From contig CAZHQA010000001.1 of assembly GCA_964533955.1 (NCBI GenBank), positions 44 to 64,043 on the forward strand: 64,000 nt of DNA. Direction: 5' to 3'. Positions within the stretch are counted from its first letter, which is position 1; every line of letters starts with the position of its first letter. A program made the position numbers and the translations under genes. This DNA comes from an uncultured Reyranella sp. (GTDB lineage: Bacteria; Pseudomonadota; Alphaproteobacteria; Reyranellales; Reyranellaceae). The notes below the pieces were generated by a model, which saw only the letters and a program-made list of their open reading frames with translations, searched no databases and was not told the DNA's origin. This document shows positions 20,571 through 50,982 of the stretch, piece after piece.

Positions 20571-20654
20571 GAGGCCAAGAAGATCGAGTTTGCGGCGATT
20601 TTCCCCGTGGACGGCCCCCTGGAGCGGCCCTAGGGTCGCGCTACCCAGACGATC

Positions 20655-20840
20655 CCTGTGGGAGAGACCGCCTTCTCGAGGCGGCGCCGAAGGAGCAACC
20701 GGCCCCGGAAACTCTCAGGCAAACGGACCGCAGGAGGATGGGTCTCTGGAAAGCGGCGCGTGCCCCCGGGCAGGCGCCCACCGACGAGGTAAGGCCGCCG
20801 GACTTTTGGCTGGCCGAATCTTTCAGGTCTCCGGACAGAG
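20655..20840 (+). promoter_or_regulatory. tandem glycine riboswitch (two aptamers) in the gcvT leader
   Basis: Aptamer 1 (20655-20734): CCTGTG-GGAGAG...CCGAAGGAGCAA...CTCTCAGGCAAACGGAC-CGCAGG. Aptamer 2 (20744-20840): CTCTGGAAAG...CACCGACGAGGTAA...TTTCAGGTCTCCGGACAGAG. Both carry the conserved glycine-aptamer cores, and the element sits in front of the glycine cleavage operon. Confidence 0.85.
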
Positions 20841-20897: not shown

Positions 20898-22016
20898 TTG
20901 GTCGAACTCAAGCGCACACCGCTCTACGCCCTGCACAAGGAACTCGGCGCTCGCCTCGTGCCGTTCGCCGGCTACGAGATGCCTGTGCAGTATCCTGCCG
21001 GGATCCTCGCCGAGCATGCTCATACCCGCACGGCTGCAGGCCTGTTCGACGTCTCGCACATGGGCCAGGTGCGCCTGACGGCGAGGCCCGGCCAGGCGGC
21101 GAAAGGGGGGGCGGCCAGGGCGCTCGAGACTCTGGTGCCCGGCGATATTGCCGGCCTCGCACCAGGCCAGCAGCGCTACACCCAGTTCACCAACGCGGCC
21201 GGCGGCATCCTCGACGATTTGATGGTGACCAGCACCGGCGATCACCTCCTGCTGGTCGTCAATGCCGCCTGCAAGGACGCCGACCTCGCGCACCTGCAAA
21301 CGCACCTGTCGTCGAGCTGCGAGGTCGAGCCGACCTTCTCGCGCGGGCTGCTGGCCTTGCAGGGGCCGCTCGCAGCGCAAGCGCTGGCCCGTCTGGCGCC
21401 CTCGGTTGCCGGCATGAGGTTCATGACCGGCGCCTTCGTCGTGGTCGACGGCGCGCGCTGCTACGTCACGCGTTCCGGCTATACCGGCAGCGACGGCTAC
21501 GAGATTTCCACGCCGGGTGATCGGACCGAGGCGATTGCGCGCCAGCTGTTGGCCCAGCCCGAGGTCAAGCCGATCGGACTCGGCGCTCGAGATTCGCTCA
21601 GGCTGGAAGCGGGGCTGTGCCTGTACGGCCACGACATCGACACCACCACCACGCCGATCGAAGCCGGCCTGCTGTGGAGCATCGGCAAGGAACGGCGCCT
21701 GCAGGGAGGATTCCCCGGCGCTGCCGTGATCCAAACGCAGATCGCCGAGGGTGCGCCACGCAAGCGCGTCGGCCTGCTGCCTGATGGCAAGGCGATTGCG
21801 CGCGAAGGCGCGGAGATCGCCGTCGCCGGAAAGGTCGCGGGCAAGGTGACGTCGGGCGGATTCTCGCCGACGCTCGGCCGCGCCGTCGCCATGGGTTACG
21901 TCGACAAGGCGCAGTCGGCGAACGGCACCAAGGTCGAGCTCGTGGTGCGCGGCAAGCCGGTGCCAGCCGAGATCGTGCCCATGCCCTTCGTCAAACACGC
22001 CTACTACCGCGGATAG
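20898..22016 (+). CDS. gcvT: glycine cleavage system aminomethyltransferase T
   Basis: LYALHKELGARLVPFAGYEMPVQY and FDVSHMGQ. The start is TTG 20898 preceded by GGAG (20888-20891); no in-frame ATG is nearby. Confidence 0.93.
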   Translation: MVELKRTPLYALHKELGARLVPFAGYEMPVQYPAGILAEHAHTRTAAGLFDVSHMGQVRLTARPGQAAKGGAARALETLVPGDIAGLAPGQQRYTQFTNAAGGILDDLMVTSTGDHLLLVVNAACKDADLAHLQTHLSSSCEVEPTFSRGLLALQGPLAAQALARLAPSVAGMRFMTGAFVVVDGARCYVTRSGYTGSDGYEISTPGDRTEAIARQLLAQPEVKPIGLGARDSLRLEAGLCLYGHDIDTTTTPIEAGLLWSIGKERRLQGGFPGAAVIQTQIAEGAPRKRVGLLPDGKAIAREGAEIAVAGKVAGKVTSGGFSPTLGRAVAMGYVDKAQSANGTKVELVVRGKPVPAEIVPMPFVKHAYYRG

Positions 22017-22025
22017 GAGTCCGAG

Positions 22026-22400
22026 ATGAGCGTCAAGTACAGCAAAGACCATGAATGGATCCGCGTCGAAGGCGATGTCGGAACGATCGGCATCACCAGC
22101 TATGCCCAGGAGCAGTTGGGCGACGTGGTGTTCGTCGACGTGCCCCAGGTCGGCCGCAAGGTCGCCAAGGGCGAGTCGGTCGCGGTGGTGGAATCGGTGA
22201 AGGCCGCCTCGGACATCTATGCGCCGGCATCGGGCGAGATCGTCGAAGGCAATCAGGCGCTTTCCGACTCGCCGGGCGACGTCAATGCCGAGCCGATGGG
22301 CAAGGGCTGGTTCTTCAAGATCAGGCTTTCGGACAAGTCCGAGCTCGACGAGCTGATGGACGAGGCGGCCTACGCGGCCTTCGTGAAGAGCCTGTCGTGA
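22026..22400 (+). CDS. gcvH: glycine cleavage system H protein
   Basis: Lipoyl-lysine motif [13 protein letters not shown]. Length 124 aa. Confidence 0.95.
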
Positions 22401-22432
22401 CGGCCGCGCGTGCGTAGAGCCAGGAGCACCTG

Positions 22433-23779
22433 ATGCGTTACCTCCCCCTCACCGACGCCGACCGCCGCGAGATGCTGGCGAAGATCGGCGCCAAATCGAT
22501 CGACGAGCTGTTCCGCGACGTGCCCCAGACGGCGCGCCTCGGCGCCGGGATCGCGGGCTTGCCCGATCACCAGGGCGAGCTCGAGGTCGAGCGCGCCTTC
22601 CAGGCCTTCGCCAACAGGAACGTGTCGCCCGCCACGGCGCCGTTCTTCATCGGCGCCGGCGCCTATCGCCACCACGTGCCGGCCACCGTCGATTACATGA
22701 TCCAGCGCGGCGAGTTCCTGACCTCCTATACGCCTTATCAGCCGGAGATCACCCAGGGGACGCTGCAGTACCTCTTCGAGTTCCAGACCCAGGTCGCATT
22801 GCTCACCGGCATGGAAGTGGCCAACGCCTCGATGTACGACGGATCGACCGCCGCATCCGAAGCCGTGCTGATGGCCAACCGGGTGACCCGCCGCCACAAG
22901 GCGCTGATCTCGGGTGGTCTCCATCCGCACTATCGCGCCGTCATCCGGACCGACGCGCGCTGGGAAGGTTTCACCGCCGACTCGGCAAAGGCCGACATCG
23001 AAGGGCACGAGGAGCTGATCGCGCTCATCGACAAGGAGACGTCCTGCGTCGTGGTCCAGAACCCGAGCTTTTTCGGCCATGTGCGCGATTTCGCCAGGCT
23101 TGCCGAGGCCTGCCACGCGGCGGGCGCGCTGCTGATCGTCGTCGTCACCGAAGTGGTTTCGCTTGGACTGATCACGCCGCCGGGCGAGATGGGGGCCGAC
23201 ATCGTGGTCTGCGAGGGCCAGTCGATCGGCAACGGGCTGGGCTTCGGCGGCCCTTATGTCGGGCTGTTCGCCACCAGAGAGAAGTACATGCGCCAGATGC
23301 CGGGCCGGCTGTGCGGCGAGACGGTCGATGCCGACGGCAAGCGCGGTTTCGTGCTGACGCTTTCGACGCGTGAGCAGCACATCAGGCGCGAGAAGGCGAC
23401 GTCCAACATCTGCACCAATGCCGGCCTCTGCGCGCTCGCCTTCACGGTCCATCTCACGCTGCTGGGCGAGACGGGCTTCAGGCGCCTGGCCGAGCTCAAT
23501 CACGCCAAGGCCTCTCAGCTTGCCGACCTCGTGGCGTCGGTGCCCGGGGTGGAAATCCTCAACGACAGCTTCTTCAACGAATTTGCCGTCCGCCTGCCCA
23601 AGCCTGCCGCGCCGGTGGTCGAGGCTCTGGCCGCCCGACGCATCCTGGGCGGGCTGCCGGTATCGCGGCTGATACCGGACGATCCGTCCGTGACTGGTCT
23701 TCTGCTGCTCGCAGCGACGGAGACCGCGACCGAGGCGGGCATGGCGCCGCTGGTCGCCGGCCTCAAGGAGGTGCTGTGA
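22433..23779 (+). CDS. gcvPA: glycine dehydrogenase (decarboxylating) subunit 1
   Basis: [14 protein letters not shown] and N-terminal P-protein-like sequence throughout. Length 448 aa. Confidence 0.95.
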
Positions 23780-25356
23780 TGGTCCAGTCGCTCGACCGTT
23801 CGCAGGGCCGCTCCGGCGGCATTTCGGCCGCGGCTTCCGATGCGCCGACCTTTACCGGCAACAGGGCGCTGCAGATCGAGGAGCCGCTGATCTTCGAACT
23901 GGGCCAGGCCGGCCGCTGCGCCGTCGACCTGCCGGAGCCGTCCAAGTGCAAGGACCGCCTCAATGGCCTGCGCCGCACCGGCGAGATCGGCCTGCCGGGG
24001 CTGAGCGAGCCGCAGGTGGTGCAGCACTACACGCGGCTCAGCCAGAAGAACTACGCGATCGACATGGGCGTTTACCCGCTGGGCTCGTGCACCATGAAGC
24101 ACAATCCACGACTCAACGAGAAGGTGGCGCGACTCGGCGGCATCGGCGACCTCCATCCGCTGCAACCGGTCTCCACCGTGCAGGGCGCGCTCGAGCTGAT
24201 CGACCAGCTGGCGCACTGGCTGAAGACGCTGACCGGCATGCCGGCCGTCGCCATGTCGCCTGCCGCCGGCGCCCACGGCGAGATGTGCGGCATGATGACG
24301 ATTGCCGCCGCCCTCGAAGCGCGCGGCGAGCGTGCCCGGCGCAAGACCGTGCTGGCGCCGGAGTCGGCGCACGGCACCAATCCGGCGACGGCCGCCTCGC
24401 TCGGCTTCACCGTGAAGCCGATCCCGGCCAATGAGCGGGGACGCGTCGATCTCGCGGCGCTGAAGGCCGCCCTGGGTCCGGACGTGGCCGCGATCATGCT
24501 GACCAATCCCAACACCTGCGGGCTGTTCGAGACCGAGATCATCGAGATTTCCCGTGCGGTGCACGAGGCTGGTGCCTATTTCTACTGCGATGGCGCCAAC
24601 TTCAACGCCATCGTCGGTCGCGTCCGGCCGGGTGATCTCGGCATCGACTGCATGCACATCAATCTGCACAAGACCTTCTCCACGCCGCATGGCGGCGGCG
24701 GGCCGGGGGCGGGGCCCGTGGTGCTCTCGGCGGCGCTGGCGCCGCATGCGCCTTTTCCCTGGGTCGTGAAGCAGGGCGACACCTGGACCGTCGCCGAGGA
24801 TGGCGCCAGAGTCGATGGCACGCCGATCGGACGGCTGAAGGCCTTCCATGGCCAGATGGGCATGTTCACGCGCGCGCTCGCCTACATCATGAGCCATGGC
24901 GCGGACGGGCTGAAGCAGGCGTCCGAGGACGCCGTTCTGTCGGCCAATTACGTCATGGCCTCGCTCGAGGATGTCATGAGTCCGGCGTTCGAGGGCCCGT
25001 GCATGCACGAGGCATTGTTCGATGACGGCTTCCTCAAGGATAGCGGCGTGAGCACGCTGGACTTTGCCAAGGCGATGATCGACGAGGGCTATCATCCCAT
25101 GACCATGTACTTCCCGCTGGTCGTGCATGGCGCGCTGCTGATCGAGCCGACCGAGAGCCAGGCCAAGGAGGATCTCGACCTGTTCATCGGCGCGCTGCGC
25201 TCGCTCGCCGAGCGGGCGAAAAGCGGCAAGGAGGCGGAGGCCTTCAAGGCCGCCCCGCGCTTCGCGCCGCGGCGGCGTCTCGACGAGACGCTGGCCGCCC
25301 GCAAGCCCGTGCTACGCTGGCGGCCATCGAACGGCTTCAAGCAGGCGGCGGAGTAG
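23779..25356 (+). CDS. gcvPB: glycine dehydrogenase (decarboxylating) subunit 2
   Basis: PLP-lysine region INLHKTFSTPHGGGGPG. ATG 23779 overlaps the gcvPA TGA by 1 nt (GTG 23776 is also possible), with AAGGAG upstream. Confidence 0.95.
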   Translation: MVQSLDRSQGRSGGISAAASDAPTFTGNRALQIEEPLIFELGQAGRCAVDLPEPSKCKDRLNGLRRTGEIGLPGLSEPQVVQHYTRLSQKNYAIDMGVYPLGSCTMKHNPRLNEKVARLGGIGDLHPLQPVSTVQGALELIDQLAHWLKTLTGMPAVAMSPAAGAHGEMCGMMTIAAALEARGERARRKTVLAPESAHGTNPATAASLGFTVKPIPANERGRVDLAALKAALGPDVAAIMLTNPNTCGLFETEIIEISRAVHEAGAYFYCDGANFNAIVGRVRPGDLGIDCMHINLHKTFSTPHGGGGPGAGPVVLSAALAPHAPFPWVVKQGDTWTVAEDGARVDGTPIGRLKAFHGQMGMFTRALAYIMSHGADGLKQASEDAVLSANYVMASLEDVMSPAFEGPCMHEALFDDGFLKDSGVSTLDFAKAMIDEGYHPMTMYFPLVVHGALLIEPTESQAKEDLDLFIGALRSLAERAKSGKEAEAFKAAPRFAPRRRLDETLAARKPVLRWRPSNGFKQAAE

Positions 25357-27170: not shown

Positions 27171-27241
27171 GGGGATCTCCTGGGTTGGAGGCCAATATCG
27201 CGGCTCTGGGCGGCGTCATTCAGGCCTGGTATTATCCTGGG

Positions 27242-28033
27242 ATGGAGACACCCAGCCACAGCGAACTCGGCGACTTCCTGCGTTCCCGCCGCGAGCGGCT
27301 CAGCCCCAGGACGGTCGGCTTGCCGAACGGCCGCCGACGCCGCACGCCGGGTCTGCGGCGCGAGGAAGTGGCGGAACTGGCCGGTATCGGCGTCGACTGG
27401 TACGTCCGGCTGGAGCAGGGCCGCTCGGTCAGCCCTTCGGTCACCACCGTCGATGCGCTGGCCCGGGCGCTCCGTCTCAGCAAGGCCGAGCACGGCCATC
27501 TGCGTGCCCTGACCCGGCAGGGCGACCGGCGGGCTTTCGTCCGCGAGAGCGTGCCAGGGCCGCTTCGAAGAATGGTCGAGAGGCTGAACCAGCCGGCCTA
27601 TATCACCGGCCGGCGCTGGGACGTGCTGGCCTGGAACCAGGCGGCGGAGGAGATCTTCGCCTTCGGCCGTTTGCCCGAGCCGGAGCGCAATATCCTGCTC
27701 CTGGTCTTCACGCGACCGGCATCACGGCGCCAATTCGGTGCGGCCTGGGCAGAGGAGGCCCGACGGATCCTGGCCCAGTTCCGGACCACGCACGATCTGT
27801 GGGCCGACGATCCGGCGTTCCGCGACCTGCTGCATCGGCTGCGTGCGGGCAGCCCGGAGTTCGTGGAATGGTGGGGTCGGCACGATATCCGCCCGTCGGC
27901 GGCCGGCGTGAAGCGCCTCAAGCATCCTCAAAAGGGCTGGCTCGCCTTCGAGCATGCGAGCTTCCAGGCCAACGACGACCCGGCGCTGAAGCTCATCGTC
28001 TACACGCCGGTCAGTGCGGCGGCATCGGAATAA
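27242..28033 (+). CDS. MmyB-like helix-turn-helix (XRE-type) transcriptional regulator
   Basis: LGDFLRSRRERLSP...LRREEVAELAGIGVDWYVRLEQGR, followed by a C-terminal ligand-type domain. It is divergent from the MDR oxidoreductase, a common MmyB pairing. Confidence 0.8.
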   Translation: METPSHSELGDFLRSRRERLSPRTVGLPNGRRRRTPGLRREEVAELAGIGVDWYVRLEQGRSVSPSVTTVDALARALRLSKAEHGHLRALTRQGDRRAFVRESVPGPLRRMVERLNQPAYITGRRWDVLAWNQAAEEIFAFGRLPEPERNILLLVFTRPASRRQFGAAWAEEARRILAQFRTTHDLWADDPAFRDLLHRLRAGSPEFVEWWGRHDIRPSAAGVKRLKHPQKGWLAFEHASFQANDDPALKLIVYTPVSAAASE

Positions 28034-28856
28034 ACACGGGCGGCGGACCGGACATGCGCGAACGGGCCTTGATCGCTTCGTCATTGGCGCCTTGCGGCTT
28101 CAGGTAGACGTAGAAGGGCGTGCGGCGCTCGACGATATCCTTGCCGGGCTGCGCGCTTTGACTGACCAGCATGTCGGACTGAATGCGCACATGCATGTAG
28201 CCCGGGATCAGCTCGGCCCAGTTCGCGACCTCGGGCGTGAAGAGAACGTCATAGGAGTATCCGTCGACGACACTCACGACACCCCAGTTCACGCCTGCGG
28301 CGGGCCGCGACGGAACCTGCTGCCAGGTGATGCCCGATTGCACGTAGACGCTGACCGCATTCAGCATCACGTGGAGAGGGCCCTTCGGCCCGACGTTCTG
28401 AAGAAACAACGTCGCTCGATACGACTTGCCGTCCGGCTCGTAGGCGATCTGCTTCAGCTCGACGTAGAGCGAGCGCATGGCGGCATTCTCGAGCAGCAGC
28501 CGTTCCTGGCGCGCCTGTTTCAAGGAGCGCGCTTGATACCAGCCGACGCCGGCGTCCAGTGCGAAGACCGCGAGCAACCCGGCCACGATGCCGATGAATG
28601 CCGGCGAGCGCCAGAAATCCAGGCGGCGACCCAGCTTGATGGCGACGCCCGGCGCCGGTGCCGTCGTCTGGCGCGGCGCGGCGGCGCGCAGCTCATCCAG
28701 CAATTCGCGCGGCTTGTCGCCCGGCGACCCCGCGCCCGTCCGGCGTTTGAGCAGCCGCAGCTCCGACTGAGTTGCGGCAAGCTGGCGTCGCAGTGCCGCG
28801 ATCAACGCATCCTTTTCTGCCGGCAGCTTCGCCGGATCGGTCGGCGGCGTGTTCAT
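28011..28856 (-). CDS. bitopic membrane protein, function unknown (last gene of the beta-propeller/ABC operon)
   Basis: ATGA overlap with the ABC ATPase stop. N-terminal coiled-coil-like LIAALRRQLAATQSELRLLKRR, one TM segment FIGIVAGLLAVFALDAGVGWY, and a C-terminal domain of about 190 aa. No family recognised. Confidence 0.65.
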   Translation of the reverse strand: MNTPPTDPAKLPAEKDALIAALRRQLAATQSELRLLKRRTGAGSPGDKPRELLDELRAAAPRQTTAPAPGVAIKLGRRLDFWRSPAFIGIVAGLLAVFALDAGVGWYQARSLKQARQERLLLENAAMRSLYVELKQIAYEPDGKSYRATLFLQNVGPKGPLHVMLNAVSVYVQSGITWQQVPSRPAAGVNWGVVSVVDGYSYDVLFTPEVANWAELIPGYMHVRIQSDMLVSQSAQPGKDIVERRTPFYVYLKPQGANDEAIKARSRMSGPPPVFIPMPPH

Positions 28857-29521
28857 CCGACGATCGCGCCGTTGGCGATATGAATGATCTGTTCCGCCTG
28901 CTCCGCCAGCGCAAGGTTGTGAGTGACCAGGACCAGCGTGGCGCCGCGTTCGCGATTGACGGCCATCAGCTCGTCCATGATCTCGATCTCGGTCTGCTCA
29001 TCGAGGTCGGAGGTCGGTTCGTCGGCGAGGATCAACACCGGATCGTTGATCAGGGCGCGGGCGATGACGGCGCGGCGCTGCTCGCCGGCGGAAACTTCCG
29101 ATGGATAGGCATCGACCCGACCGCCGAGGCCCATCTGGGCCAGCAGGTCCGAGGCGCGGGCATAGGCATCGCCGGCGGCCCGGTCGCGGGCGAGCATCGC
29201 GGGCAGGGCGACATTGTCGATGAGCCGCAGCGTCGGCAGCAGGCTTGCGAACTGGAAAACGTAGCCGATCCGGCGGTTGCGAAAGGCGGCCAGCGCATTC
29301 TCCGGCAGTCCCCAGATATCGACGCCATCGACCACCGCGTGGCCCTGCGATGGCCGGCTGAGGCCGCCCATCATGGCGATCAACGAGGACTTGCCCGACC
29401 CTGACCGGCCGATGATCGCAGCGAAGCGGCCGGTCGCCACCTCGAGGTCGATGCCGGCGACCGCGGCGACGCTGCCGCGCTCCGTGAGATAGTCCTTTCG
29501 CAGGCCATGGCACGAGAGCAT
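28853..29521 (-). CDS. ABC transporter ATP-binding protein (MacB/LolD-like)
   Basis: Walker A GRSGSGKSS, signature VSAGEQRR, Walker B ILADEPTSDLD, H-loop VTHN. Confidence 0.92.
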   Translation of the reverse strand: MLSCHGLRKDYLTERGSVAAVAGIDLEVATGRFAAIIGRSGSGKSSLIAMMGGLSRPSQGHAVVDGVDIWGLPENALAAFRNRRIGYVFQFASLLPTLRLIDNVALPAMLARDRAAGDAYARASDLLAQMGLGGRVDAYPSEVSAGEQRRAVIARALINDPVLILADEPTSDLDEQTEIEIMDELMAVNRERGATLVLVTHNLALAEQAEQIIHIANGAIVG

Positions 29522-29524
29522 CGC

Positions 29525-30757
29525 TCAACCCTCGCCGCGCACGAGATCGTACGGGTCCCGCCGACTGGCGCGCCAGGTCGGATAGAACGCGCCCGCCGCG
29601 CCGATGACGCAGGCGAGCATGACGGCGGCGACGGCGACGGCAACGGTGCGTGGTGTGTCGAGCCAGATGAAGGGCACGCCGATATGCTCGAGATAGTAGA
29701 CCAGCGAGTGTTCGTAGACGCGCATCGCCAGGGTACCCAGCACCACGCCGATGACGCCGCCGATTCCGGTGGCGATCACCGCCTCGATGATCATCATGCC
29801 GACGACCTGGGAACGCCGTGCGCCGATCGCCTTCAGGAGGCCGAGTTCGGAGCGGCGTTCGGTGACGATCGCGGAGAACAGCACGCTGACCATGAGGGCC
29901 GTGCTCGCGAACATCAGCACCATGAGGGCAAGGATCCCATCGAGCAGCGCCGCAAGTCCCTGGCGGATGCCGCTCATCGTCGAATCGCCGGTGACGACCT
30001 TGACCCCCTTCAGTGTCGAGAGGATCGCGAAGCGGGCCTGCAGCGGCGTTGCCGCCGGGGCGAGTTCGACGAGGAAGCCGCTCACCTTGTCCTGTTTCAA
30101 GGCGACGGGCGCCCCCGCGTGCCCATCCAGGGATCCGGCCAGCGCCGCGAGGGTGTCGAACGTCATGAAGACGCCGCGCTCATGCGTGCCGACTCCGGTG
30201 CGTCCCAACCGGCCGTAGACGACATGCGGCTTGCCGAAGATCAGGAGTTGGGAGCCGAGCGGGGTCTCCCGCCCGGCGCCCAGGATGACGTCGCCCGGCT
30301 GCATGTCGCGGTTGATCTTTTCAACCAGCCAGGGCCGGATCGTGAAATCGAGCCTCGGATCGAAACCGATCAGATCGACCGAGTCGTGATGGTCGCCGAT
30401 CCCCGAATGCTCGACCCGAACGATCTTCTGGGGTGCCGCCCGTCCCACGCTTGCCAGGCCCGCTTTTGCGAAGATGTCGGCATCGAGCGCGAGATCGCTC
30501 GGTTCGACCACGAGCAGCGCCGCGGTGATGTTGGTGAGCGCGCCCTCCGGCACCACCATCATGTCCGCGCCCATCCGGGTCAGGCCCGTGGCCATGCTGT
30601 CGTCGATGCTGCGCATAAGGGTCGCGCCGGTGAAGACCCCGCCGGTGGCAACCGCGACGGCGGCGATCAGCAGGAAGCTGCGGGCTTTGCGCCGCCCGAG
30701 ATTCTGCAGGGCCAGGCTGGCGAGCAGCCAGCGCAGGCCGCGGCGATCAGCGGCCAT
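29525..30757 (-). CDS. ABC transporter permease, FtsX/MacB type
   Basis: TM1, then a periplasmic domain of about 220 aa, then three C-terminal TM segments with LLKAIGARRSQV (FtsX-family signature). GGAGG lies upstream of ATG 30757. Confidence 0.88.
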   Translation of the reverse strand: MAADRRGLRWLLASLALQNLGRRKARSFLLIAAVAVATGGVFTGATLMRSIDDSMATGLTRMGADMMVVPEGALTNITAALLVVEPSDLALDADIFAKAGLASVGRAAPQKIVRVEHSGIGDHHDSVDLIGFDPRLDFTIRPWLVEKINRDMQPGDVILGAGRETPLGSQLLIFGKPHVVYGRLGRTGVGTHERGVFMTFDTLAALAGSLDGHAGAPVALKQDKVSGFLVELAPAATPLQARFAILSTLKGVKVVTGDSTMSGIRQGLAALLDGILALMVLMFASTALMVSVLFSAIVTERRSELGLLKAIGARRSQVVGMMIIEAVIATGIGGVIGVVLGTLAMRVYEHSLVYYLEHIGVPFIWLDTPRTVAVAVAAVMLACVIGAAGAFYPTWRASRRDPYDLVRGEG

Positions 30758-30772
30758 GTCCTCCGGACCGCA

Positions 30773-32593
30773 TCACAGCGTGCATGATCGCGTATGCTTC
30801 ATGTGCTCGAGCTTGGTCGGGATGATCACGCAGTCGTGGTGGCCGCCGTTGCTCGGCAGGATGCCGATCAACGTGTCCGTCGACGTGTCGATGACGGCGA
30901 TGCCGCTCGACTGCCGCTGAAAGCCGCTGAACGGCGTCAGCACGTACTTGCCGTCGTAGGTAATCGCGGGCGTCTGCAGGTCCGGGCCGATGCCCTGGAT
31001 TTCCTTCAGGATCGTCCAGGTCTTGGTGTCGACCACCATGATGCCGCTGAACGCGGGCGACGGATGCAGGATGGACAGGTAGAGCTTGGAGGCGTCCATC
31101 GAGAAGACCATGTGGAAGGGATTGGGGTACTTGCCGCGCCACAGCGGGTCCTCGACATGGGCCACCTTGCGCCACTTCGTCGGGTCGGGATCGCTGCAGC
31201 TGAAGATCGAGCAGTTGTTTTCCCTGAGGTTGTTCATCATCACCAGGAACCTGCCGTCGGGTGAGAAGCCGATCTCGTGGCCCGGCGAGTGGATCTTGTC
31301 GAACACCACCTTCCAGGTGTCCTTGTCGACCTGCTCGACCGGATACTGGTCCTGCGAGTCCTTGTTGAACTGCAGGAACGCGACCGGATCGAAGTTCTTC
31401 TCCGGGTCGAGAATGCAGATGCCGCCGCACAGGCGCACCACGGTCGCGGCCCAGCGGCCTTCGGGATGCCAGATCGTGCCGTCGGCGCCGGTCAGCGACA
31501 GCGGCGCTGCACCCGGCAGCGAGCCTTCCTCGACGAAAAGCTCGCCCATCGGCACCATTTCCCAGTCGATCTTGTTGCCCTTGGTGCCCCGGTAGTCGTA
31601 AAGGCCGGTCGTCTTGTCGGGATGGATCTTGCTGATGGTAAGCGTGCCGCCCTTGATCCAGGCATCGCGCAGGTCGGCGACGTTCGGCGCCCAGTCGAAT
31701 TTCAGGGCCGCCTTCACTTTCGACGTGGTTCGGTCGAAGCAGGCGGCGATGTCCTTCTGCCCATCGGTGACGAAATAGGACTGTGCGTCCTTCGGATTGA
31801 CCGTCACGTGCACGCCAAGGCCGAGGCCGGTGCTTTCCGAGACATTCTCAACCAGTTGCATCTGCGTGCCGTCGTAGCGCACGCGATAGATGTTGGTACC
31901 GGGCTCCGGCTCCTCGATGGCGGTGGGAATGCCGTAGATCAGTGAGTTCTTGCCGCCCTGCGTGCTGTTGACGAATTCGAATCCATTGTACGGATCGGAA
32001 CTCGGGAACGCGCAAAGATGATGGCTGATGGGGCTGTAGTCGCCGTAGTTCCAGTACCAGATCGACGCCAGCACCCGGTTCGAGTTGAGATCGATGGCGT
32101 AGGTGCCGCCGCCCATCTTGGTCGGCAACAGCGCCACCCATTTGCCCAGGCTCTGGCCGCGCAAATCGGCTGCGTTGTCGGTGACTTCGCGGACGATGGG
32201 GTGCCGCTGCGGTTCGGTGGAGGTCGTATTGGCCTGGCGAACGCCATTGTCCGAGGCGGAGTCGCCGCCCAACATGTTGTAGCCGACCAGACCGGCTTCG
32301 GCGACGACGGCCGTTCCGGCCGCAGCGCCAAGGAGCGTCCGACGGCTGAACCGACGACGCCGCTCCGTTGTCGGCGCGAGCGCTCTGATCCTTCTGGCGT
32401 CGGCTTCCTTCTTCGCGAGCAGGTAGGCCTGGAAGTCCTCGCGATCCCTTTCGGCGACTTCGTCGCGCCGTCTGATGAACGCCTCGACCGGGCTCCGGTG
32501 CGGCGGAAGATCCGTCGGCTCTGCCACGAGCTTGGCTTTGAGCGCGTCGCGCGCCGCCTGCCTGGACTTCGATTTGTTCGATCGCTTACCCAT
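30773..32593 (-). CDS. Tat-exported His-rich beta-propeller protein, putative copper enzyme of the thiocyanate dehydrogenase / NosZ-CuZ-domain type
   Basis: ATG 32593 is preceded by AAGGGGGA. Twin-arginine signal ERRRRFSRRTLLGAAAGTAVVA sits after a charged extension of about 77 aa. Repeated blade-like segments are present. His motifs are SPISHHLCAFP, GVHVT, HSPGHEIGF, NPFHMVF and GGHHDCV (about 20 aa from the C terminus). CDS confidence is high; the functional family is a hypothesis. Confidence 0.85.
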   Translation of the reverse strand: MGKRSNKSKSRQAARDALKAKLVAEPTDLPPHRSPVEAFIRRRDEVAERDREDFQAYLLAKKEADARRIRALAPTTERRRRFSRRTLLGAAAGTAVVAEAGLVGYNMLGGDSASDNGVRQANTTSTEPQRHPIVREVTDNAADLRGQSLGKWVALLPTKMGGGTYAIDLNSNRVLASIWYWNYGDYSPISHHLCAFPSSDPYNGFEFVNSTQGGKNSLIYGIPTAIEEPEPGTNIYRVRYDGTQMQLVENVSESTGLGLGVHVTVNPKDAQSYFVTDGQKDIAACFDRTTSKVKAALKFDWAPNVADLRDAWIKGGTLTISKIHPDKTTGLYDYRGTKGNKIDWEMVPMGELFVEEGSLPGAAPLSLTGADGTIWHPEGRWAATVVRLCGGICILDPEKNFDPVAFLQFNKDSQDQYPVEQVDKDTWKVVFDKIHSPGHEIGFSPDGRFLVMMNNLRENNCSIFSCSDPDPTKWRKVAHVEDPLWRGKYPNPFHMVFSMDASKLYLSILHPSPAFSGIMVVDTKTWTILKEIQGIGPDLQTPAITYDGKYVLTPFSGFQRQSSGIAVIDTSTDTLIGILPSNGGHHDCVIIPTKLEHMKHTRSCTL

Positions 32594-32724
32594 GCGAAGT
32601 CCCCCTTGTCGTGGCTTCGCGATATTAGAGGGGGCCGCGTTCGGCGAATCAAGTTCGGTGGATACTCGCGAATCGTCGAAACGCTTTGTGGACCGGCGAC
32701 CCCGACGCATGCTCAACTTTGCAA

Positions 32725-33420
32725 ATGGACTATGCGGTCATCATCAGCGCGATTGTCCTTGGCCTTTCCGTGCTGGCGACGGCAGCCAAGTTTCTCGACT
32801 GGTTCCTCCATTCGGACCCCAAGACCATGGTGCGGACCATGCGCTGGATGGTCGTGCTTCTGGTCATAGTCGCCGTTCCGCTGCTCATCATGATGATCGT
32901 CCGCGAGCAGTGGGTCGGCGCGATGCTGCTGGGTGCTGCCGCTCTCGTCGTTCCGACATTCCTGAAATGGCGTACTGTGCTGGCGCCGCTGCGCGCCGCG
33001 TTCGGCCAGATTCGACCGAAGGCGCGTCGGTTCGAGATGCCGCCTGTCTGGCAGGACGACAGGGACATCGATCCCGACACGGTGCATCGCGCGGCCACCA
33101 TCCTCGAAGCCTACGTGAGCCGAGGTGGGCGCCGGGCGCCGACGGAGCTGCAAGGGTTGGACGACGCTATCGGAGGCAATGCGGGCTTGACGGCGAAAGA
33201 GGCGCTCGACGTGCTGGGTCTGCCTGACGGCGCGGACGTTGCCGCCGTGCATGCCGCGCACCGCCGGCTGATGCGGATGGTCGACCCCGATACGGGCGGT
33301 TCCCCCTACCTGGCGGCGAGGGTCGACGAGGCGCGCGACCTGCTGATCGACGCGCTGCGTCGCCGCGGGCGGCCGACCGCCGTCGGCATGGCTATGCCCA
33401 AGCGGCTGCCGACACGCTAG
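32725..33420 (+). CDS. membrane protein with C-terminal J-like domain (HPD replaced by DPD)
   Basis: ATG 32725 (MDYAVIISAIVLGL). Three hydrophobic segments are followed by LTAKEALDVLGLPDGADVAAVHAAHRRLMRMVDPDTGGSPYLAARVDEARDLL, a J-domain pattern with D instead of H in the HPD tripeptide. Confidence 0.7.
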   Translation: MDYAVIISAIVLGLSVLATAAKFLDWFLHSDPKTMVRTMRWMVVLLVIVAVPLLIMMIVREQWVGAMLLGAAALVVPTFLKWRTVLAPLRAAFGQIRPKARRFEMPPVWQDDRDIDPDTVHRAATILEAYVSRGGRRAPTELQGLDDAIGGNAGLTAKEALDVLGLPDGADVAAVHAAHRRLMRMVDPDTGGSPYLAARVDEARDLLIDALRRRGRPTAVGMAMPKRLPTR

Positions 33421-37687: not shown

Positions 37688-39910
37688 TCAAGCGGTTAGT
37701 GGCTTGAAAACCGAGAAGTTGGCGTCACCGTCACGCTTCACCTGAGGCACCAGATCGACCTCCCATTCGAGGTACTGGCGCATCGCCGCTTCGACGTCCT
37801 GCTTGAAGTCGTAGGGCCGATACCAGACGTCGGTCGGCGGATCGGCCATGCGCGTGTGGCCCGACTCCAGGGCGAGCCCCGCGTCGCGCCAGGCCTTCAT
37901 GCCGCCGGCCAGGATGGCGACCGGCACGGCCCCTGCCGCTTGGCTCGCCTCGGTCGCCGCGAGCGCCGCGATCTCGCCATCGGGCGACACCAGCACGATG
38001 CGCGCGACACCGGACTGCTTGGCCAGCATTTCGGGAATAGTCCTGGCCAGGCCAGCACGCACGGCGAACCAGGCGCCCGGCACGTGGCCATCGCGATATC
38101 GCAGGCTGGTGTCGAGATCGATCACCAGGCTCGAGCCCAGCGACTTGTCGAGCTCGCCGGCCGTCACCTGAGGCGCCGCCGGAACTGCAAAGCCGGCGGG
38201 GAATCGCGGCTCGGCCTCGGTGGTGAGCTCTCCGGCAGCCGGCTTGTGGTCGAGCACGTAGGTGTTCGCCCACTTCATCTGCAGCAGCCAGTGCGCCGTC
38301 ATGGTGGCGCGCACGCCGTCATTGTCGTGCAGCACGATGGTGGCGCCGCGCGCCCCGACATATTGGTCGGTCGCCTGGACGAGCTGGCCGCCCGCGGCAT
38401 GGCGGAAGCCCTTGAGGTGACCTTGTGCGTATTCGGCGGGATCGCGCACATCGAGCCGGTGGATCGCGCCGCCCTTCGCCTCGAGCGCGCGCAGGCCCGC
38501 CATGTCGATTTTCCTGATCGCCATGCGCCTGGCGATGTTGGCCGCCGCGCTCTGGGCGAACTTCGCGGCTTCCGGCCCCTGCGGGCCAAACGACTTCGTT
38601 TCGCCGCGCGCCACTTTCAGGCCCGCGAGGTGCCAGCCCATGGTGCCGTTCTTCAGCGCCATCACCTTGTTGGGCAGGCCGGCGTTGATCAGCGACTGCG
38701 CGCCGATGATGGAGCGCGTGCGGCCCGCGCAATTCACCACCACGAGCGTCTTGGGATCGGGCGCGAAGTCCTTCACGCGGTAGACCAGCTCGGCGCCCGG
38801 GCAGTCGATGCCGCCGGGGATCGACATGTTGTTGAATTCCGGCATCGGCCGGGAATCGAGGATCACCATGTCGGCCTTGGAATCGATCAGCTTCTGGACG
38901 TCGGCGGCGTCGATGCGCGGCGTGTCGTTGTCGTGCTCGACGACCTCGCCGAACGCCTTCGAGGGGACATTGACGCCGGTGAACACCTCGTACCCTGCCT
39001 CGCGCCACGCCTTCAGGCCGCCGTTCATGACCGCGAGGTTGGTGTAGCCCATTTGCGAGAGCCGGGCGGCGGCGCGGTTGGCGCGGCCCGCCCATTGCGG
39101 ATCCTCGCCGGGTTCGCCGCTGTCCATCAGCACGATGCGGGTTGCGGGATCGGGCAGCAGGGCGAAGGCCCGCGGCTCGAGCCGCGACAGCGGCAAGGGC
39201 GTGGCGAACAGCGGATGGCCCTTGATCGAGAACTCGCCTTCCTCGCGCACGTCGAAGAAGGCGAAGACCTCGCCCGACTTCAGCATCGCCTTGACCTGCT
39301 GCACGCCGAGCAGCGGCGTCAGGATCTTGGCGCGTGCCATGAAGCGCTTGGCTGCACCGGTTGCCATGTCGACGCTGACGCGGTCGGGCAGGTGCTCGAG
39401 GCTCAGCCCGTAGAAATGCAGGTGAAGCGCAGTGCCCGAGCCGGCGGGTGTCTCGATGTGATGGAAGTCGTCCGGCAGGTAGGCGATGAAGTCTCCATTC
39501 CGGAGCGTCTTTTCCTTGGCGGCGTTCTCGCGCAGCTGGGCGAAGTCGGCGCGCGCCCCGTTGTCGAGACGGTCGTAGACCACATTGCGCTCGGCGCCAT
39601 GGACGCCGGCAATCACCGCCCAGGTCGTGTGATTGTGCGGCGGCACCTTCTTGCCGGGCCCGCCGGCCGAGGCATAGAGCGCAAATCGATGGTCGGGGTC
39701 CTCGCTCAGGCGGTAGATGCCGCCGTCGGATCCGAGCGGGAACTCGTCCTGCGGGAAGAGGTCGGCGCGCCGCGCCAACCCCGCGAGCAAACCGCCGATC
39801 TTGTCGAGACTGACGGTGGTGACGCCGGCCTTCTCGATTTCGCGGGCCTGATCGACAAGATGCCGAACGGCGCGCGCGCGTTCCTGATCCACACTCGGGT
39901 GCGAGGTCAT
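37688..39910 (-). CDS. fusion protein: cysteine-dioxygenase-like cupin + four rhodanese domains (one with catalytic Cys)
   Basis: GGAGG precedes ATG 39910. The N-terminal 200 aa or so carry PPHNHTTWAVIAGVHG and DDFHHIETP (3-His cupin pattern as in the CDO-like gene at 41913). Four rhodanese-like repeats follow. Only the second has an active-site loop (VVVNCAGRTRS). The others have Asp at that position (LMDSGEPG, LHDNDGVR, LVSPDGEI). Confidence 0.85.
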   Translation of the reverse strand: MTSHPSVDQERARAVRHLVDQAREIEKAGVTTVSLDKIGGLLAGLARRADLFPQDEFPLGSDGGIYRLSEDPDHRFALYASAGGPGKKVPPHNHTTWAVIAGVHGAERNVVYDRLDNGARADFAQLRENAAKEKTLRNGDFIAYLPDDFHHIETPAGSGTALHLHFYGLSLEHLPDRVSVDMATGAAKRFMARAKILTPLLGVQQVKAMLKSGEVFAFFDVREEGEFSIKGHPLFATPLPLSRLEPRAFALLPDPATRIVLMDSGEPGEDPQWAGRANRAAARLSQMGYTNLAVMNGGLKAWREAGYEVFTGVNVPSKAFGEVVEHDNDTPRIDAADVQKLIDSKADMVILDSRPMPEFNNMSIPGGIDCPGAELVYRVKDFAPDPKTLVVVNCAGRTRSIIGAQSLINAGLPNKVMALKNGTMGWHLAGLKVARGETKSFGPQGPEAAKFAQSAAANIARRMAIRKIDMAGLRALEAKGGAIHRLDVRDPAEYAQGHLKGFRHAAGGQLVQATDQYVGARGATIVLHDNDGVRATMTAHWLLQMKWANTYVLDHKPAAGELTTEAEPRFPAGFAVPAAPQVTAGELDKSLGSSLVIDLDTSLRYRDGHVPGAWFAVRAGLARTIPEMLAKQSGVARIVLVSPDGEIAALAATEASQAAGAVPVAILAGGMKAWRDAGLALESGHTRMADPPTDVWYRPYDFKQDVEAAMRQYLEWEVDLVPQVKRDGDANFSVFKPLTA

Positions 39911-50936: not shown

Positions 50937-50982
50937 GTAAGGGGCCGTGGCCTACCATACGAGTTGTCGTTTGAAAGGGTCC

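Follow-up and report, generated by a model that had tools for sequence, protein, structure and literature searches.

Thiocyanate dehydrogenases (TcDHs) have been characterised from Thioalkalivibrio paradoxus ARh1 (tpTcDH; PDB 5F75, 5OEX and 6G5M) and from Pelomicrobium methylotrophicum (pmTcDH; 8Q9X and 8Z75), and substrate binding and the electron path in the known enzyme have been described (PMC9456337). Berben et al. reported that two permease/ATPase pairs and a hypothetical protein with a single helix are encoded after TcDH, that the genes of the operon are induced 4.5- to 6.7-fold on thiocyanate in T. thiocyanoxidans, and that its ABC proteins carry no known copper-transport motifs (PMC5328954, PMC5744179). 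With the TcDH family and its gene neighbourhood already described, what appears to be new in the locus presented here, as judged from its sequence, is a variant with glutamine in place of an active-site histidine, referred to below as Gln-type. The locus lies in a stretch of 64,000 nucleotides, the window, and comprises the following genes:

30773..32593, minus strand: g1, precursor of a seven-bladed copper propeller of the TcDH family, Gln-type variant (606 aa from ATG)
29525..30757, minus strand: g2, FtsX/MacB-type permease (410 aa; Pfam FtsX E 1e-17)
28853..29521, minus strand: g3, LolD/MacB/FtsE-type ABC ATPase (222 aa; Pfam ABC_tran E 2e-27)
28011..28856, minus strand: g4, bitopic accessory subunit (281 aa)
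32725..33420, plus strand: g0, polytopic membrane protein with a Tim14/Pam18-like J domain at its C-terminus; fifth conserved gene of the module

The four minus-strand genes that the earlier note had placed at 28011-32593 are all present as open reading frames, separated by 15 nt (g1/g2) and 3 nt (g2/g3) or overlapping at ATGA (g3/g4), as read in the sequence. AAGGGGGA stands 6 nt upstream of the g1 ATG, and GGAGG lies within the 15-nt stretch between the g1 stop and the g2 ATG; a longer, TTG-started frame of g1 extends to 32716, orthologues being 602-611 aa long. Within the operon, no promoter-like or terminator-like site rose above shuffled-sequence expectation. Upstream of g1 the following element was recorded:

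32622..32627, minus strand: -10-like box TAATAT, 28 nt upstream of the g1 ATG

This box may be a promoter element of g1, as CTAGTAT/CTAATAT is the sole block that stays conserved when 19 orthologous upstream regions are aligned; a consensus sigma-70 scan did not call TAATAT at 32622..32627. A survey of other genomes, which the earlier note had proposed, demonstrated that the four genes co-occur elsewhere: g2, g3 and g4 follow in the same order and direction in 69/71 related genome loci for which 3 kb or more of downstream DNA is available, and g1, g2 and g3 are present at 35/35 metagenome loci that were found with g4 and have enough upstream DNA. Given these counts, the arrangement of g1 to g4 is not due to chance. 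No NosL, SCO1 or CopC/D gene was found within 10 kb of the module, in agreement with the earlier reading, and genes for cyanase, Sox, flavocytochrome c or c-type cytochromes are neither present in the 64-kb window nor conserved beside the module in related loci.

In a phmmer search of the PDB, g1 matches pmTcDH (E 8e-161) and tpTcDH (5F75; E 9e-151), with 50-52% identity over ~458 aligned residues, and it has the seven-bladed propeller and the Tat signal in common with both. The structure prediction and Foldseek comparison suggested in the earlier note gave an AF2 model of pLDDT 81.7 overall and >90 in the mature domain, of which the best 20 matches are all TcDH (TM 0.94-0.96, rmsd 1.3-1.4 Å), while the best match outside TcDH reaches TM 0.62 and NosZ-type structures 0.35-0.48. 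Thus, the homology of g1 to the TcDHs of known crystal structure extends over the entire mature protein, and the TcDH-like propeller proposed from the sequence is a Tat-signal-bearing member of that family. When the published active-site residues (PMC6504805, Fig. 4) were mapped residue by residue in pairwise alignments to TcDH, 12/13 proved to be kept in g1, namely the equivalents of H135, H136, H206, E288, D314, H381, H437, H528, K103, Q156, D529 and R544, and outside these the equivalents of F436, H527 and the electron-transfer Tyr164 are kept as well. The His motifs quoted previously all occur in the translation (SHH 190-192, GVHVT 260-264, HSPGH 435-439, PFH 492-494 and GGHHD 583-587), and the ligand order HH...H...D...H...FH...HHD, proposed along with them, aligns residue for residue with tpTcDH.

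That g1 might instead be a propeller without metal (YncE-like or PQQ-type), or an N2O reductase of the NosZ/CuZ type, is extremely improbable. A sub-threshold Pfam match to DUF5074 (YncE-like; E 1e-3) and the presence of N2O reductases among the weak Foldseek matches point in that direction, as does the NCBI name of tpTcDH itself, 'YncE family protein'; however, the TcDH match is full-length and overwhelming, the active-site residues are there, N2O reductases show 11-14% identity and superpose only poorly, and g1 has no cupredoxin (CuA) domain, which had already led the earlier note to set NosZ aside. The PDB phmmer search, the alignments and Foldseek refute these identities for practical purposes.

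The N-terminus of g1 contains two features:

32378..32491, minus strand: g1 N-terminal extension, predicted long helix before the Tat motif (residues 35-72)
32294..32365, minus strand: g1 twin-arginine signal (residues 77-100), SRRTLL and then an Ala/Gly/Val-rich h-region, read from the translation

The helix is modelled with pLDDT 70-89, and the extension is conserved at the protein level in the orthologues of 602-611 aa. The segment ERRRRFSRRTLLGAAAGTAVVA covers residues 77-98 and SRRTLL residues 83-88, of which R84 and R85 are invariant in the orthologue alignment, consistent with the twin-arginine signal previously proposed. In tpTcDH the RR motif is found at ~residue 35 (PMC5328954), so that the leader before RR measures ~34 residues there versus ~83 in g1.

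The single published active-site residue that differs in g1 belongs to a set of changed positions:

30974..30976, minus strand: Gln540 codon (CAG), aligned pairwise with active-site His482 of tpTcDH and His447 of pmTcDH
31064..31066, minus strand: His510 codon, aligned with Trp453 of tpTcDH; this position covaries with position 482
31274..31276, minus strand: Glu440 codon, adjoining active-site His439, in a type-specific column (Gln382 in the His-type)

The glutamine, which the earlier note did not spot, occupies position 482 in 120/120 of the closest g1 homologues, and in an alignment of 128 sequences the split at this position fits 54/54 Gln-type and 74/74 His-type members. Trp453 and His482 occur together in all 74 His-type sequences, whereas Gln482 is never accompanied by Trp at 453, where the 54 Gln-type sequences have His (36), Arg (8), Tyr (5), Asp (2) or Asn, Ser or Gly (1 each). 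Position 382 is Gln in 99% of His-type and Glu in 53/54 Gln-type sequences, and four or five more type-specific changes separate the two types in the same alignment. The region altered by His482 to Gln540, Trp453 to His510 and Gln382 to Glu440 is presumably the third-copper (Cu3) site. With this part of the active site remodelled, g1 may differ from the tested TcDHs in substrate and copper stoichiometry. According to PDB titles, H482Q and H447Q have already been made as laboratory mutants (6SJI, 8YU5/8YU6), and if they abolish TcDH activity, thiocyanate oxidation by g1 would be doubtful.

The Gln-type variant is common in soil Alphaproteobacteria, and it is possible, if less probable than a thiocyanate-oxidising role, that its clade represents a functionally different enzyme, with the same fold and first two copper sites and a rebuilt third site. 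Such an enzyme might act on another substrate (selenocyanate, sulfide/polysulfide, a thiol or a cyanate-related compound) or hold a binuclear or mixed-metal centre, and 'thiocyanate dehydrogenase' or 'thiocyanate desulfurase' might then be a mis-annotation in soil Alphaproteobacteria. Besides the consistent loss of Trp453 with Gln482, the change to Glu beside active-site His381 and the further type-specific positions, the tree agrees with this reading, since the g1 clade forms a branch apart from the His-type clade that contains both tested enzymes. The hosts are mostly heterotrophs in which cyanase and sulfur-oxidation genes are not linked to the module, and the Gln-type gene of Tautonia sits in a copper-resistance island rather than a sulfur locus. 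On the other hand, H136/E288, proposed as the catalytic pair, the Cu2-associated His528 and Tyr164 are all kept, as are the pocket-shaping K103, Q156, F436, D529 and R544, and the accessory genes that are thiocyanate-induced in Thioalkalivibrio are conserved with g1. In addition, lineages that branch on either side of the Gln-type (WW-His, and distant His types such as the Afipia/THI201 enzyme) have been linked to thiocyanate degradation, and some members carry the JGI label thiocyanate desulfurase, assigned by similarity only.

The pump genes bear out the earlier description of a MacB-type ABC system, g2 being an FtsX/MacB-type permease and g3 a LolD/MacB-like ATPase by Pfam and NCBIfam. The former has one N-terminal helix, a ~225-aa periplasmic domain and three C-terminal helices (hydrophobic segments 29-47, 275-293, 322-340 and 372-390); its orthologues also match MacB_PCD, and a GDHHD motif in its periplasmic domain is not conserved. 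The bitopic g4 consists of a cytoplasmic helical N-terminus of ~80 aa, a membrane helix (86-104), a periplasmic beta-sandwich (130-255; AF2 pLDDT ~85) and a C-terminal IPMPPH. No match to g4 was obtained in Pfam, NCBIfam or PDB sequences. It has 497 homologues in the protein collection, and its profile detects the bitopic proteins encoded in TcDH operons of the His type (E 4e-42 to 6e-26). Compared with the T. paradoxus TcDH operon, g2 shows 36% identity to the first permease (E 6e-75), g3 46% to the first ATPase (E 3e-75) and g4 39% to the bitopic protein downstream of TcDH (E 1e-40), of which they are the orthologues; homologues of all three likewise occur in a locus of a Burkholderiaceae MAG and in another His-type locus. 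It follows that g4 belongs to a conserved TcDH accessory family. It is, moreover, a component of the ABC system, because it is fused to an ABC ATPase in two loci (L088 and L089; 477 and 433 aa, g4-profile E 1e-45 and 5e-38) and overlaps g3 at ATGA. In this respect the earlier interpretation stands for the TcDH-like propeller and the ABC pump but not for the "orphan" bitopic protein, nor for the supposedly unexplained coupling of enzyme and pump, which had already been published for the original TcDH operons (PMC5328954, PMC5744179).

Q173, G175, W178, Y220, M221 and H222 do not vary in the g4 alignment, which covers loci of Alpha-, Beta- and Gammaproteobacteria and others, and IPMPPH terminates every full-length member:

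28014..28025, minus strand: g4 C-terminal Met-Pro-Pro-His, candidate Cu(I) site together with Tyr220-Met221-His222 and Trp178

Copper may thus be bound at YMH, W178 and MPPH, while Foldseek returned only generic beta-sandwich matches for g4, among them weak hits on PmoB and on a PCuAC-like Cu(I) chaperone. Systems of the MacB/LolCDE type pull their substrates out from the periplasmic side and could serve as the model for a role of g2/g3/g4 in product handling or envelope protection rather than maturation, for example in removing hydrophobic zero-valent sulfur or polysulfide from the periplasm or the outer leaflet. We regard such a role as rather unlikely. It would agree with the release of elemental sulfur in the periplasm by TcDH (PMC5328954), with the lack of a recognised metal-binding domain in the ABC proteins and the unconserved GDHHD of g2, and with copCD beside T. 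paradoxus TcDH, which already serves copper supply. By contrast, the invariant Met, His and Trp of g4 form a typical Cu(I) ligand set and not a sulfur-binding Cys set, the alignments reveal no conserved Cys in g4 or in the g2 periplasmic domain, and the module encodes neither an outer-membrane exit duct nor a membrane-fusion protein. Periplasmic copper loading of the enzyme is favoured for the ABC/g4 machine. Two Gln-type lineages, Tautonia (L086) and the LR type (L087), have no adjoining ABC genes, and the machine is therefore not universally required.

The conserved fifth gene, g0, was overlooked in the earlier note. Its homologue lies at most 1.3 kb upstream of g1 in 66/72 genome loci (58 divergent, 8 co-directional). 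It has hydrophobic segments in the first ~80 residues, and the family profile finds yeast Tim14 (2GUZ_A; E 5e-13) as best PDB match. Pfam DnaJ is matched by 13/15 family members; the window's own g0 does not reach the threshold and has DPD where most orthologues have the HPD required for DnaK stimulation, which is therefore doubtful for this copy.

Taken together, the locus is probably a compact TcDH operon of a Reyranella-like alphaproteobacterium in which g1 oxidises thiocyanate or a similar anion and g2/g3/g4 load copper. The g1 precursor, with its 83-residue cytoplasmic leader and twin-arginine signal, would go through a handling step at the membrane, perhaps with g0 recruiting DnaK, and be exported by Tat, whereupon the multi-copper active site would form in the propeller channel in the periplasm. 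The enzyme would convert thiocyanate, or a small sulfur anion much like it, into cyanate together with zero-valent sulfur and pass electrons via its His586 and Tyr220 to a c-type cytochrome. As a mechanotransmission machine of the MacB/FtsEX type, g2/g3/g4 would perform periplasmic work and not transport a solute across the membrane; ATP would drive loading or repair of the copper site through the g4 beta-sandwich, where Cu(I) could sit on the invariant Met, His and Trp. Related MAGs from thiocyanate bioreactors (L004 SCN18_..., L052 SCNpilot) agree with this reading, though only circumstantially. Counting against it are the loss of one published active-site residue (His482 to Gln), the absence of cyanase, sulfur-oxidation and cytochrome genes from the window and as conserved neighbours of the module, the generic Foldseek matches of g4, the lack of copper motifs in the ABC proteins, the two Gln-type lineages with no adjoining ABC genes and the DPD of g0. 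Nor did a literature search find a link between thiocyanate degradation and Reyranella, Ancylobacter, Chelatococcus or Inquilinus, the hosts named in related loci.

As for known systems, the Thioalkalivibrio operon encodes, immediately after TcDH, an FtsX-type permease, then an ABC ATPase and a bitopic protein with MPPH at its end, as in the window, and in addition a second permease/ATPase pair, a 182-aa protein, upstream copCD and tatA, fccAB and a sigma-54 two-component regulator. Of these extras the window has none; it contains a single permease/ATPase pair, but also an upstream J-domain membrane protein and ~80 more cytoplasmic residues on g4, and unlike the hosts of tpTcDH and pmTcDH, that of g1 belongs to a non-halophilic alphaproteobacterial lineage. 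With MacB, LolCDE and FtsEX (type VII, mechanotransmission), g2 shares the FtsX fold signature, 1+3 helices and a large periplasmic domain, and g3 scores best with the LolD, YbbA, MacB and FtsE ATPase models. NCBIfam scores stay well under the cut-offs (LolD 210 vs 308, in spite of E 3e-62 for g3; LolCE 31 vs 362), and g2/g3 are therefore none of these named systems; the module has no MacA-like adaptor, TolC or EnvC-like partner, its partner being the g4 beta-sandwich protein. The g0 family resembles Tim14/Pam18-type J proteins, and also bacterial DjlA-like ones, in its N-terminal membrane helices and C-terminal J domain, and we know of no earlier report that ties such a Tim14/Pam18-like protein to a Tat-exported copper enzyme. 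NosZ, with NosDFY-NosL, likewise combines a seven-bladed propeller that is exported by Tat and holds a His-ligated multi-copper centre with a genetically coupled ABC system and a membrane-tethered periplasmic protein. There is no sequence relationship between NosZ and g1, the fold similarity is weak (TM 0.35-0.48) and g1 is without a CuA domain; NosFY is of the ABC-2 type with a six-helix NosY whereas g2/g3 are of the FtsX type, and g4 is unrelated to NosD and NosL. The two systems would thus be alike in logic and not in ancestry, and NosZ serves as a working analogy for the ATP-driven periplasmic metallation of g1.

The first gene of the module under study, g1, encodes a member of the thiocyanate dehydrogenase (TcDH, EC 1.8.2.7) family and is followed by genes for a permease (g2), an ABC ATPase (g3) and a bitopic protein (g4). 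The four minus-strand open reading frames described in the earlier note were all found in the sequence at the coordinates it gave, as were, in the g1 translation, the twin-arginine segment and every His motif that it quoted:

30773-32593, minus strand, g1, TcDH-like propeller precursor, ORF of 606 aa
29525-30757, minus strand, g2, FtsX/MacB-type permease, ORF of 410 aa
28853-29521, minus strand, g3, ABC ATPase, ORF of 222 aa
28011-28856, minus strand, g4, bitopic protein, ORF of 281 aa

TcDH carries out the copper-dependent oxidation of SCN- to cyanate and sulfur, with cytochrome c as the acceptor and three Cu per monomer. In a phmmer search against the PDB, residues 148-605 of g1 match the enzymes of Pelomicrobium methylotrophicum (pmTcDH, E 8e-161) and Thioalkalivibrio paradoxus (tpTcDH, 5F75, E 9e-151). 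An AF2 model built on 38 family members has pLDDT >90 across the mature domain; Foldseek superimposes it on TcDH structures (20 chains, TM 0.94-0.96, rmsd 1.3-1.4 A), and the best match outside the family is a generic YVTN propeller (TM 0.62). Structure prediction followed by Foldseek had been proposed as a check on the initial guess of a TcDH-like copper propeller, and that guess was right; the PDB sequence match and the TcDH superposition exclude a non-metal propeller. Nitrous oxide reductase (NosZ), whose CuZ propeller uses seven His ligands and is joined to a cupredoxin (CuA) domain at the C terminus, had been dismissed from the outset and is rejected here as well, since g1 has no COX2/cupredoxin match in Pfam and reaches TM 0.35-0.48, at 11-14% identity, with N2O reductases in Foldseek; the chain ends 20 residues past the HHD motif. 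The profile searches that had also been recommended were of divided use: Pfam and NCBIfam returned nothing usable on g1, just a sub-threshold DUF5074, and Pfam recognised g2 through its FtsX domain. With regard to nomenclature, the crystallised T. paradoxus TcDH is named 'YncE family protein' or 'WD40 repeat domain-containing protein' by NCBI, and JGI labels some members of the window's clade 'thiocyanate desulfurase' and most others 'hypothetical protein'; names assigned automatically to these proteins can mislead either way.

At residues 83-99 the g1 sequence reads SRRTLL and then a hydrophobic AAAGTAVVA stretch, and the twin-arginine RR is invariant among orthologues, which marks g1 as a putative Tat-exported periplasmic protein. 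The window has an exact match in a metagenome contig, and g1 is 85% identical to Reyranella, which points to a Reyranella-like alphaproteobacterium. In the alphaproteobacterial clade g1 carries a longer cytoplasmic leader, with RR at 84-85 and an AF2-predicted helix at 35-72. Direct reading of the DNA places AAGGGGGA six bases 5' of the g1 ATG, a 15-nt spacer that includes GGAGG between g1 and g2, a 3-nt spacer between g2 and g3, and an ATGA overlap between g3 and g4. Within the operon, terminator-like and promoter-like sites (sigma-70 and terminator scans) do not exceed shuffled expectation, and an Rfam search gave no match. Comparison of upstream regions revealed a CTAGTAT/CTAATAT box about 28 nt 5' of the g1 ATG as the sole conserved block; the intergenic region between g1 and the upstream gene g0 (window 32594-32724) is poorly conserved except for this box and, some 20 nt farther 5', a T-rich stretch. 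Operons of family members with His at tpTcDH position 482 (His-type) carry sigma-54 regulators, which predicts a sigma-54 element, whereas no element of this type is evident in window 32594-32724, upstream of g1, or in the upstream regions of the related loci retrieved for comparison.

Thirteen active-site residues have been listed for TcDH (Tsallagov et al., PMC6504805 Fig. 4), and twelve of them are kept in g1 as K159 (K103 in tpTcDH), H191 (H135), H192 (H136), Q212 (Q156), H262 (H206), E345 (E288), D371 (D314), H439 (H381), H494 (H437), H586 (H528), D587 (D529) and R602 (R544), the exception being H482; in addition, F436 corresponds to F493 and Y164 to Y220. These residues were mapped through ungapped blocks of a HMMER alignment to 5F75 and checked by BLAST. 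H262, H439, H191, D371 and H586 align without nearby gaps and are invariant in the 38-sequence family alignment; the His/Asp conservation on which the earlier note had made its proposal depend holds at these five positions. Tikhonova et al. 2020 reportedly assign H206 and H381 to the Cu1 site, H135, D314 and H528 to the Cu2 site, and His482 with H437 to the third copper (Cu3). Judged by alignment, the residues assigned to the first two copper sites and the proposed catalytic and pocket residues (H136, E288, K103, Q156, F436, D529 and R544) are shown to be conserved in g1. In the known enzyme, the thiocyanate N lies on Cu1 and its S bridges Cu2 and Cu3, His528 is linked to Cu2, and electrons are proposed to run from Cu2 via His528 to cytochrome c552, with Tyr164 on the route (PMC9456337).

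It is at the presumed third-copper site that g1 departs from the characterised enzymes: H437 is retained as H494, and the position of His482 is occupied by Gln540 (Gln-type). Gln is present in 120/120 of the closest homologues (72-100% identity) and is therefore not a sequencing quirk. A 128-sequence family alignment splits cleanly into 74 His-type and 54 Gln-type sequences: His482 is paired with Trp453 in 74/74 of the former, and Trp453 is absent from 54/54 of the latter (His in 36, Arg in 8, Tyr in 5, Asp in 2, and Asn, Ser and Gly in one each). Gln382, which adjoins the active-site His381, is replaced by Glu in 53 of the 54 Gln-type sequences, and positions 441, 459, 502, 503 and 188 are type-specific as well. 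According to PDB titles, the same change has been engineered in both model enzymes, as tpTcDH H482Q (6SJI) and pmTcDH H447Q (8YU5, 8YU6); a literature search for papers on these mutants found none. The idea, argued from beta-hairpin register, that His510 replaces the missing ligand was dropped, given that the AF2 strands 491-497 and 503-509 place it opposite residue 490 and not beside His494. Since a defining active-site residue is replaced, g1 is classed as a variant of TcDH rather than a confirmed thiocyanate dehydrogenase.

Neighbour-joining groups the His-type enzymes in a single clade and puts the window g1 in another, made up of proteins of about 600 residues with Leu-His at 452/453; distant outgroups again have His at position 482. 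Relatives are encoded in 195 species-representative genomes, and the best 80 of these 195 hits are all Gln-type, for which reason the Gln-type may well predominate among sequenced genomes; the genome and metagenome scans covered the best 80 loci each, more distant members being sampled through individual encoding contigs. Hosts among the best 80 of 195 include Reyranella (R. massiliensis 521 and R. soli NBRC 108950 among them), other Rhodospirillales, Xanthobacteraceae, Chelatococcus reniformis, Ancylobacter aquaticus DSM 101, Aquabacter and Inquilinus. Two of these 80 loci are MAGs from thiocyanate bioreactors, a suggestive but circumstantial pointer to a thiocyanate link. Literature searches found nothing relevant tying Reyranella, Ancylobacter, Chelatococcus or Inquilinus to thiocyanate, and nothing on the window's Gln-type clade. 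A further Gln-type homologue, with Trp-Asp at 452/453 and without ABC genes, is found in Tautonia sociabilis (RYZH01000027.1, 1795-14344), within a copper island that holds two multicopper oxidases, CopB, a Csp copper-storage protein, an outer-membrane efflux protein and a P-type ATPase; it is named 'methanethiol oxidase' by UniRef and 'YncE family protein' by NCBI.

The four genes form a conserved unit. The co-occurrence survey that had been called for found g1 followed by g2-g3-g4 in 69/71 genome loci for which 3 kb or more of downstream sequence was available, and g1-g2-g3 in 35/35 metagenome loci that were retrieved from g4 and had enough upstream DNA. Genes for cyanase, Sox, cytochrome c, CopCD, SCO1 and NosL are not conserved near the module, in line with the initial remark that NosL, SCO1 and CopC/D are missing. 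The reading of g2 and g3 as a MacB-type ABC pump has held up, as g2 contains an FtsX domain (Pfam E 1e-17) and hydrophobic segments at 29-47, 275-293, 322-340 and 372-390, a 1+3 topology in which a large periplasmic domain separates the first helix from the second; MacB_PCD was found in orthologues and not in the window copy. The predicted g2 protein thereby has the features of a MacB/LolCDE/FtsEX-type (type VII) ABC permease. Identity with LolCDE, MacAB-TolC, FtsEX or DevCBA was rejected on NCBIfam equivalog scores far below the cut-offs, and genes for a MacA/DevB adaptor, TolC or an EnvC-like protein are absent from the module. A GDHHD stretch in the periplasmic domain of g2, tried as a metal motif, is not conserved.

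For g4, no match was obtained in Pfam, in NCBIfam or among PDB sequences, and a g4 profile found none in the PDB at E up to 10. Its AF2 model consists of an N-terminal helix, a membrane helix continuing to residue 129 and a beta-sandwich at 130-255 (pLDDT about 85), and in the alphaproteobacterial clade g4 has about 80 extra cytoplasmic residues. Foldseek matches are generic sandwiches such as ApaG and Kir C-terminal domains, among which PmoB and a PCuAC-like Cu(I) chaperone (3ZK0, TM 0.43, rmsd 10 A) are weak. An NCBIfam match to AmoA (E 0.015) and Foldseek matches to PmoB/AmoB at rmsd >18 A look like noise. Across all lineages Q173, G175, W178, Y220-M221-H222, S232, D240, L252, P254 and P273 are invariant, and so is the C-terminal IPMPPH, including M278/H281. 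In two related loci, both Gln-type TcDH-like operons, a g4-like protein is fused to the ATPase in the order ATPase, linker, membrane helix, sandwich, MPPH:

L088, 3785-5218, ATPase-g4-like fusion of 477 aa
L089, 5058-6359, ATPase-g4-like fusion of 433 aa

These fusions show a physical link between g4 and the ATPase and, taken with the ATGA overlap of g3 with g4, indicate that g4 is a subunit of the ABC complex.

A fifth gene accompanies the module. In 66/72 loci g0, which encodes a predicted J-domain membrane protein (window 32725-33420, plus strand), is found no more than 1.3 kb upstream of g1; it is divergent from g1 in 58 of them and co-directional in 8, so the linkage holds in either orientation. 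It is absent from three His-type loci (T. paradoxus, a Burkholderiaceae MAG and GCA_040960975.1). The protein has N-terminal hydrophobic segments and a putative C-terminal J domain, a fold whose helices II and III are separated by an HPD tripeptide; yeast Tim14 is matched by the family profile (E 5e-13) and Pfam DnaJ by 13/15 members, a threshold that the window copy does not reach. Most orthologues have HPD, with DPD in the window copy and its closest relatives.

Taken together, the g1 precursor would be exported by Tat, gain its copper centre in the periplasm and oxidise thiocyanate or a close analogue. FtsX/MacB-type systems pass ATP-driven movement to periplasmic domains and do not translocate solutes, and for this reason the role that seems most likely for g2/g3/g4, tentative as it is, is loading or repair of the copper site through the Met/His/Trp residues of g4. 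The main alternative, that g2/g3/g4 handle the sulfur produced by the reaction, is less likely. As for g0, DnaK binds Tat signal peptides, and g0 may recruit it to the long Tat leader of g1, a suggestion weakened for the window copy by its DPD variant. A broader joint reading takes the Gln-type of soil and freshwater Alphaproteobacteria as an oxidoreductase in its own right, with copper or mixed metals, a remodelled third metal site and some substrate in place of thiocyanate, served by an ATP-driven metallation machine and J-protein-coupled Tat export; as a whole this is unlikely. As to its parts, the rebuilt site could consist of His494 plus Glu440, Gln540 or His510, the FtsX permease, the ATPase and the MPPH-tailed g4 subunit could be a previously unrecognised maturation machine, and Tat export could be coupled to DnaK via a dedicated Tim14-like membrane J protein.

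Beyond the module, the window is largely housekeeping in character (lepA, pheST, thrS, gcvTHP, atp F0, smc and others). Tandem glycine riboswitch aptamers (20649-20840, plus strand; Rfam RF00504, 72 + 42 bits) lie directly 5' of gcvT-gcvH-gcvPA-gcvPB (20898-25356), which is the classical arrangement. An MmyB-like HTH regulator (27185-28033, plus strand; HTH_31 + MLTR_LBD, E 1e-42) converges on g4 with a 23-nt overlap of its 3' end and was rejected as part of the module, since it stands beside it in the window's own contigs only and in none of 81 related loci. About 5-10 kb from the module are genes for a 740-aa protein with four rhodanese domains (37688-39910, minus strand; Pfam E 1e-42), a 203-aa protein with a weak cysteine-dioxygenase-like match (41913-42524, plus strand; E 0.0025, below cut-off) and a cupin (42521-42985, minus strand). 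Rhodanese makes thiocyanate from cyanide, which invites a link; against it, the atp F0 operon lies between these three genes and the module, and they are not conserved beside it in other genomes. Elsewhere, a 370-aa ORF (50947-52059, plus strand) carries a DciA domain (28-117) and a DsbA-like thioredoxin domain (203-356), which may reflect either a genuine fusion or a mechanical ORF call that joined two genes, and is followed by a second DsbA-like gene (52114-52773). On visual inspection, an 80-aa ORF (17637-17879, plus strand) with CxCGxSxNxPFCDGTH resembles a CDGSH-type iron-sulfur domain protein, and a secreted-looking YHYH-family protein (62274-63200, plus strand; PF14240 E 3e-57) with a His-rich N-terminal HGDHDTGTAHG is encoded 30 kb from the module.

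To our knowledge, TcDH is the only enzyme that oxidises thiocyanate directly at a trinuclear copper centre, and we know of studies on its His-type enzymes from two bacteria only. The TcDH family, fold, copper site and ABC neighbourhood are already published. As far as the literature searched is concerned, three elements are new, namely the coordinated active-site change (His482->Gln, loss of Trp453, Gln382->Glu) in a large alphaproteobacterial clade, the bitopic protein as a conserved, sometimes ATPase-fused, MPPH-tailed subunit, and the putative J-domain partner g0 of a TcDH-like module. Ordinary soil and freshwater Alphaproteobacteria, cultured strains included, carry a TcDH version with a systematically altered active-site region. 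If the Gln-type is active on thiocyanate, the capacity to destroy this compound extends far beyond the few sulfur-oxidising specialists known for it; if it is inactive, the label 'thiocyanate desulfurase' misnames most of the family. The retention of g4 from Thioalkalivibrio to Reyranella, with an invariant MPPH end and fusion to the ATPase, offers a testable hypothesis of ATP-driven maturation of a copper enzyme. To a TcDH specialist the family assignment would come as no surprise, but the existence of a Gln-type clade in nature and the fusion of g4 would be of use.

With respect to known systems, the proposed role of g2/g3/g4 is analogous in logic to NosDFY-NosL. Periplasmic Cu(I) chaperones of the CusF, PCuAC and CopC types have a beta-sandwich with a Met/His (+/- Trp) Cu(I) site; g4, a possible counterpart, has a predicted beta-sandwich and invariant W178, M221, H222, M278 and H281, without a sequence match to any PDB chain. 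The closest parallel is the TcDH locus of Thioalkalivibrio, where two permease/ATPase pairs and a hypothetical protein with a single N-terminal helix are encoded downstream of TcDH, the permeases having one N-terminal and three C-terminal helices (Berben et al., PMC5328954, PMC5744179). Genes of this operon are induced 4.5- to 6.7-fold on thiocyanate, and copper uptake has been proposed as the role of the accessory proteins (PMC5328954, PMC5744179). The coupling to an FtsX/MacB-type pump, which the earlier note had taken as new, was thus already on record: g2 aligns with the first permease of the T. paradoxus ARh1 locus (36% identity, E 6e-75) and g3 with its first ATPase (46%, E 3e-75). Nor is g4 the 'orphan' it had been called, having, besides its ATPase fusions, a homologue in the 231-aa bitopic protein of T. 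paradoxus (39% over 202 residues, E 1e-40; g4-profile E 5e-41). On these alignments the accessory genes are shown to be orthologous to those of the archetypal thiocyanate-induced TcDH operon. The His-type loci of the Burkholderiaceae MAG and GCA_040960975.1 share this layout and carry two g4 paralogues apiece, and the T. paradoxus bitopic protein ends in FIPMPPH, like the IPMPPH tail of g4.
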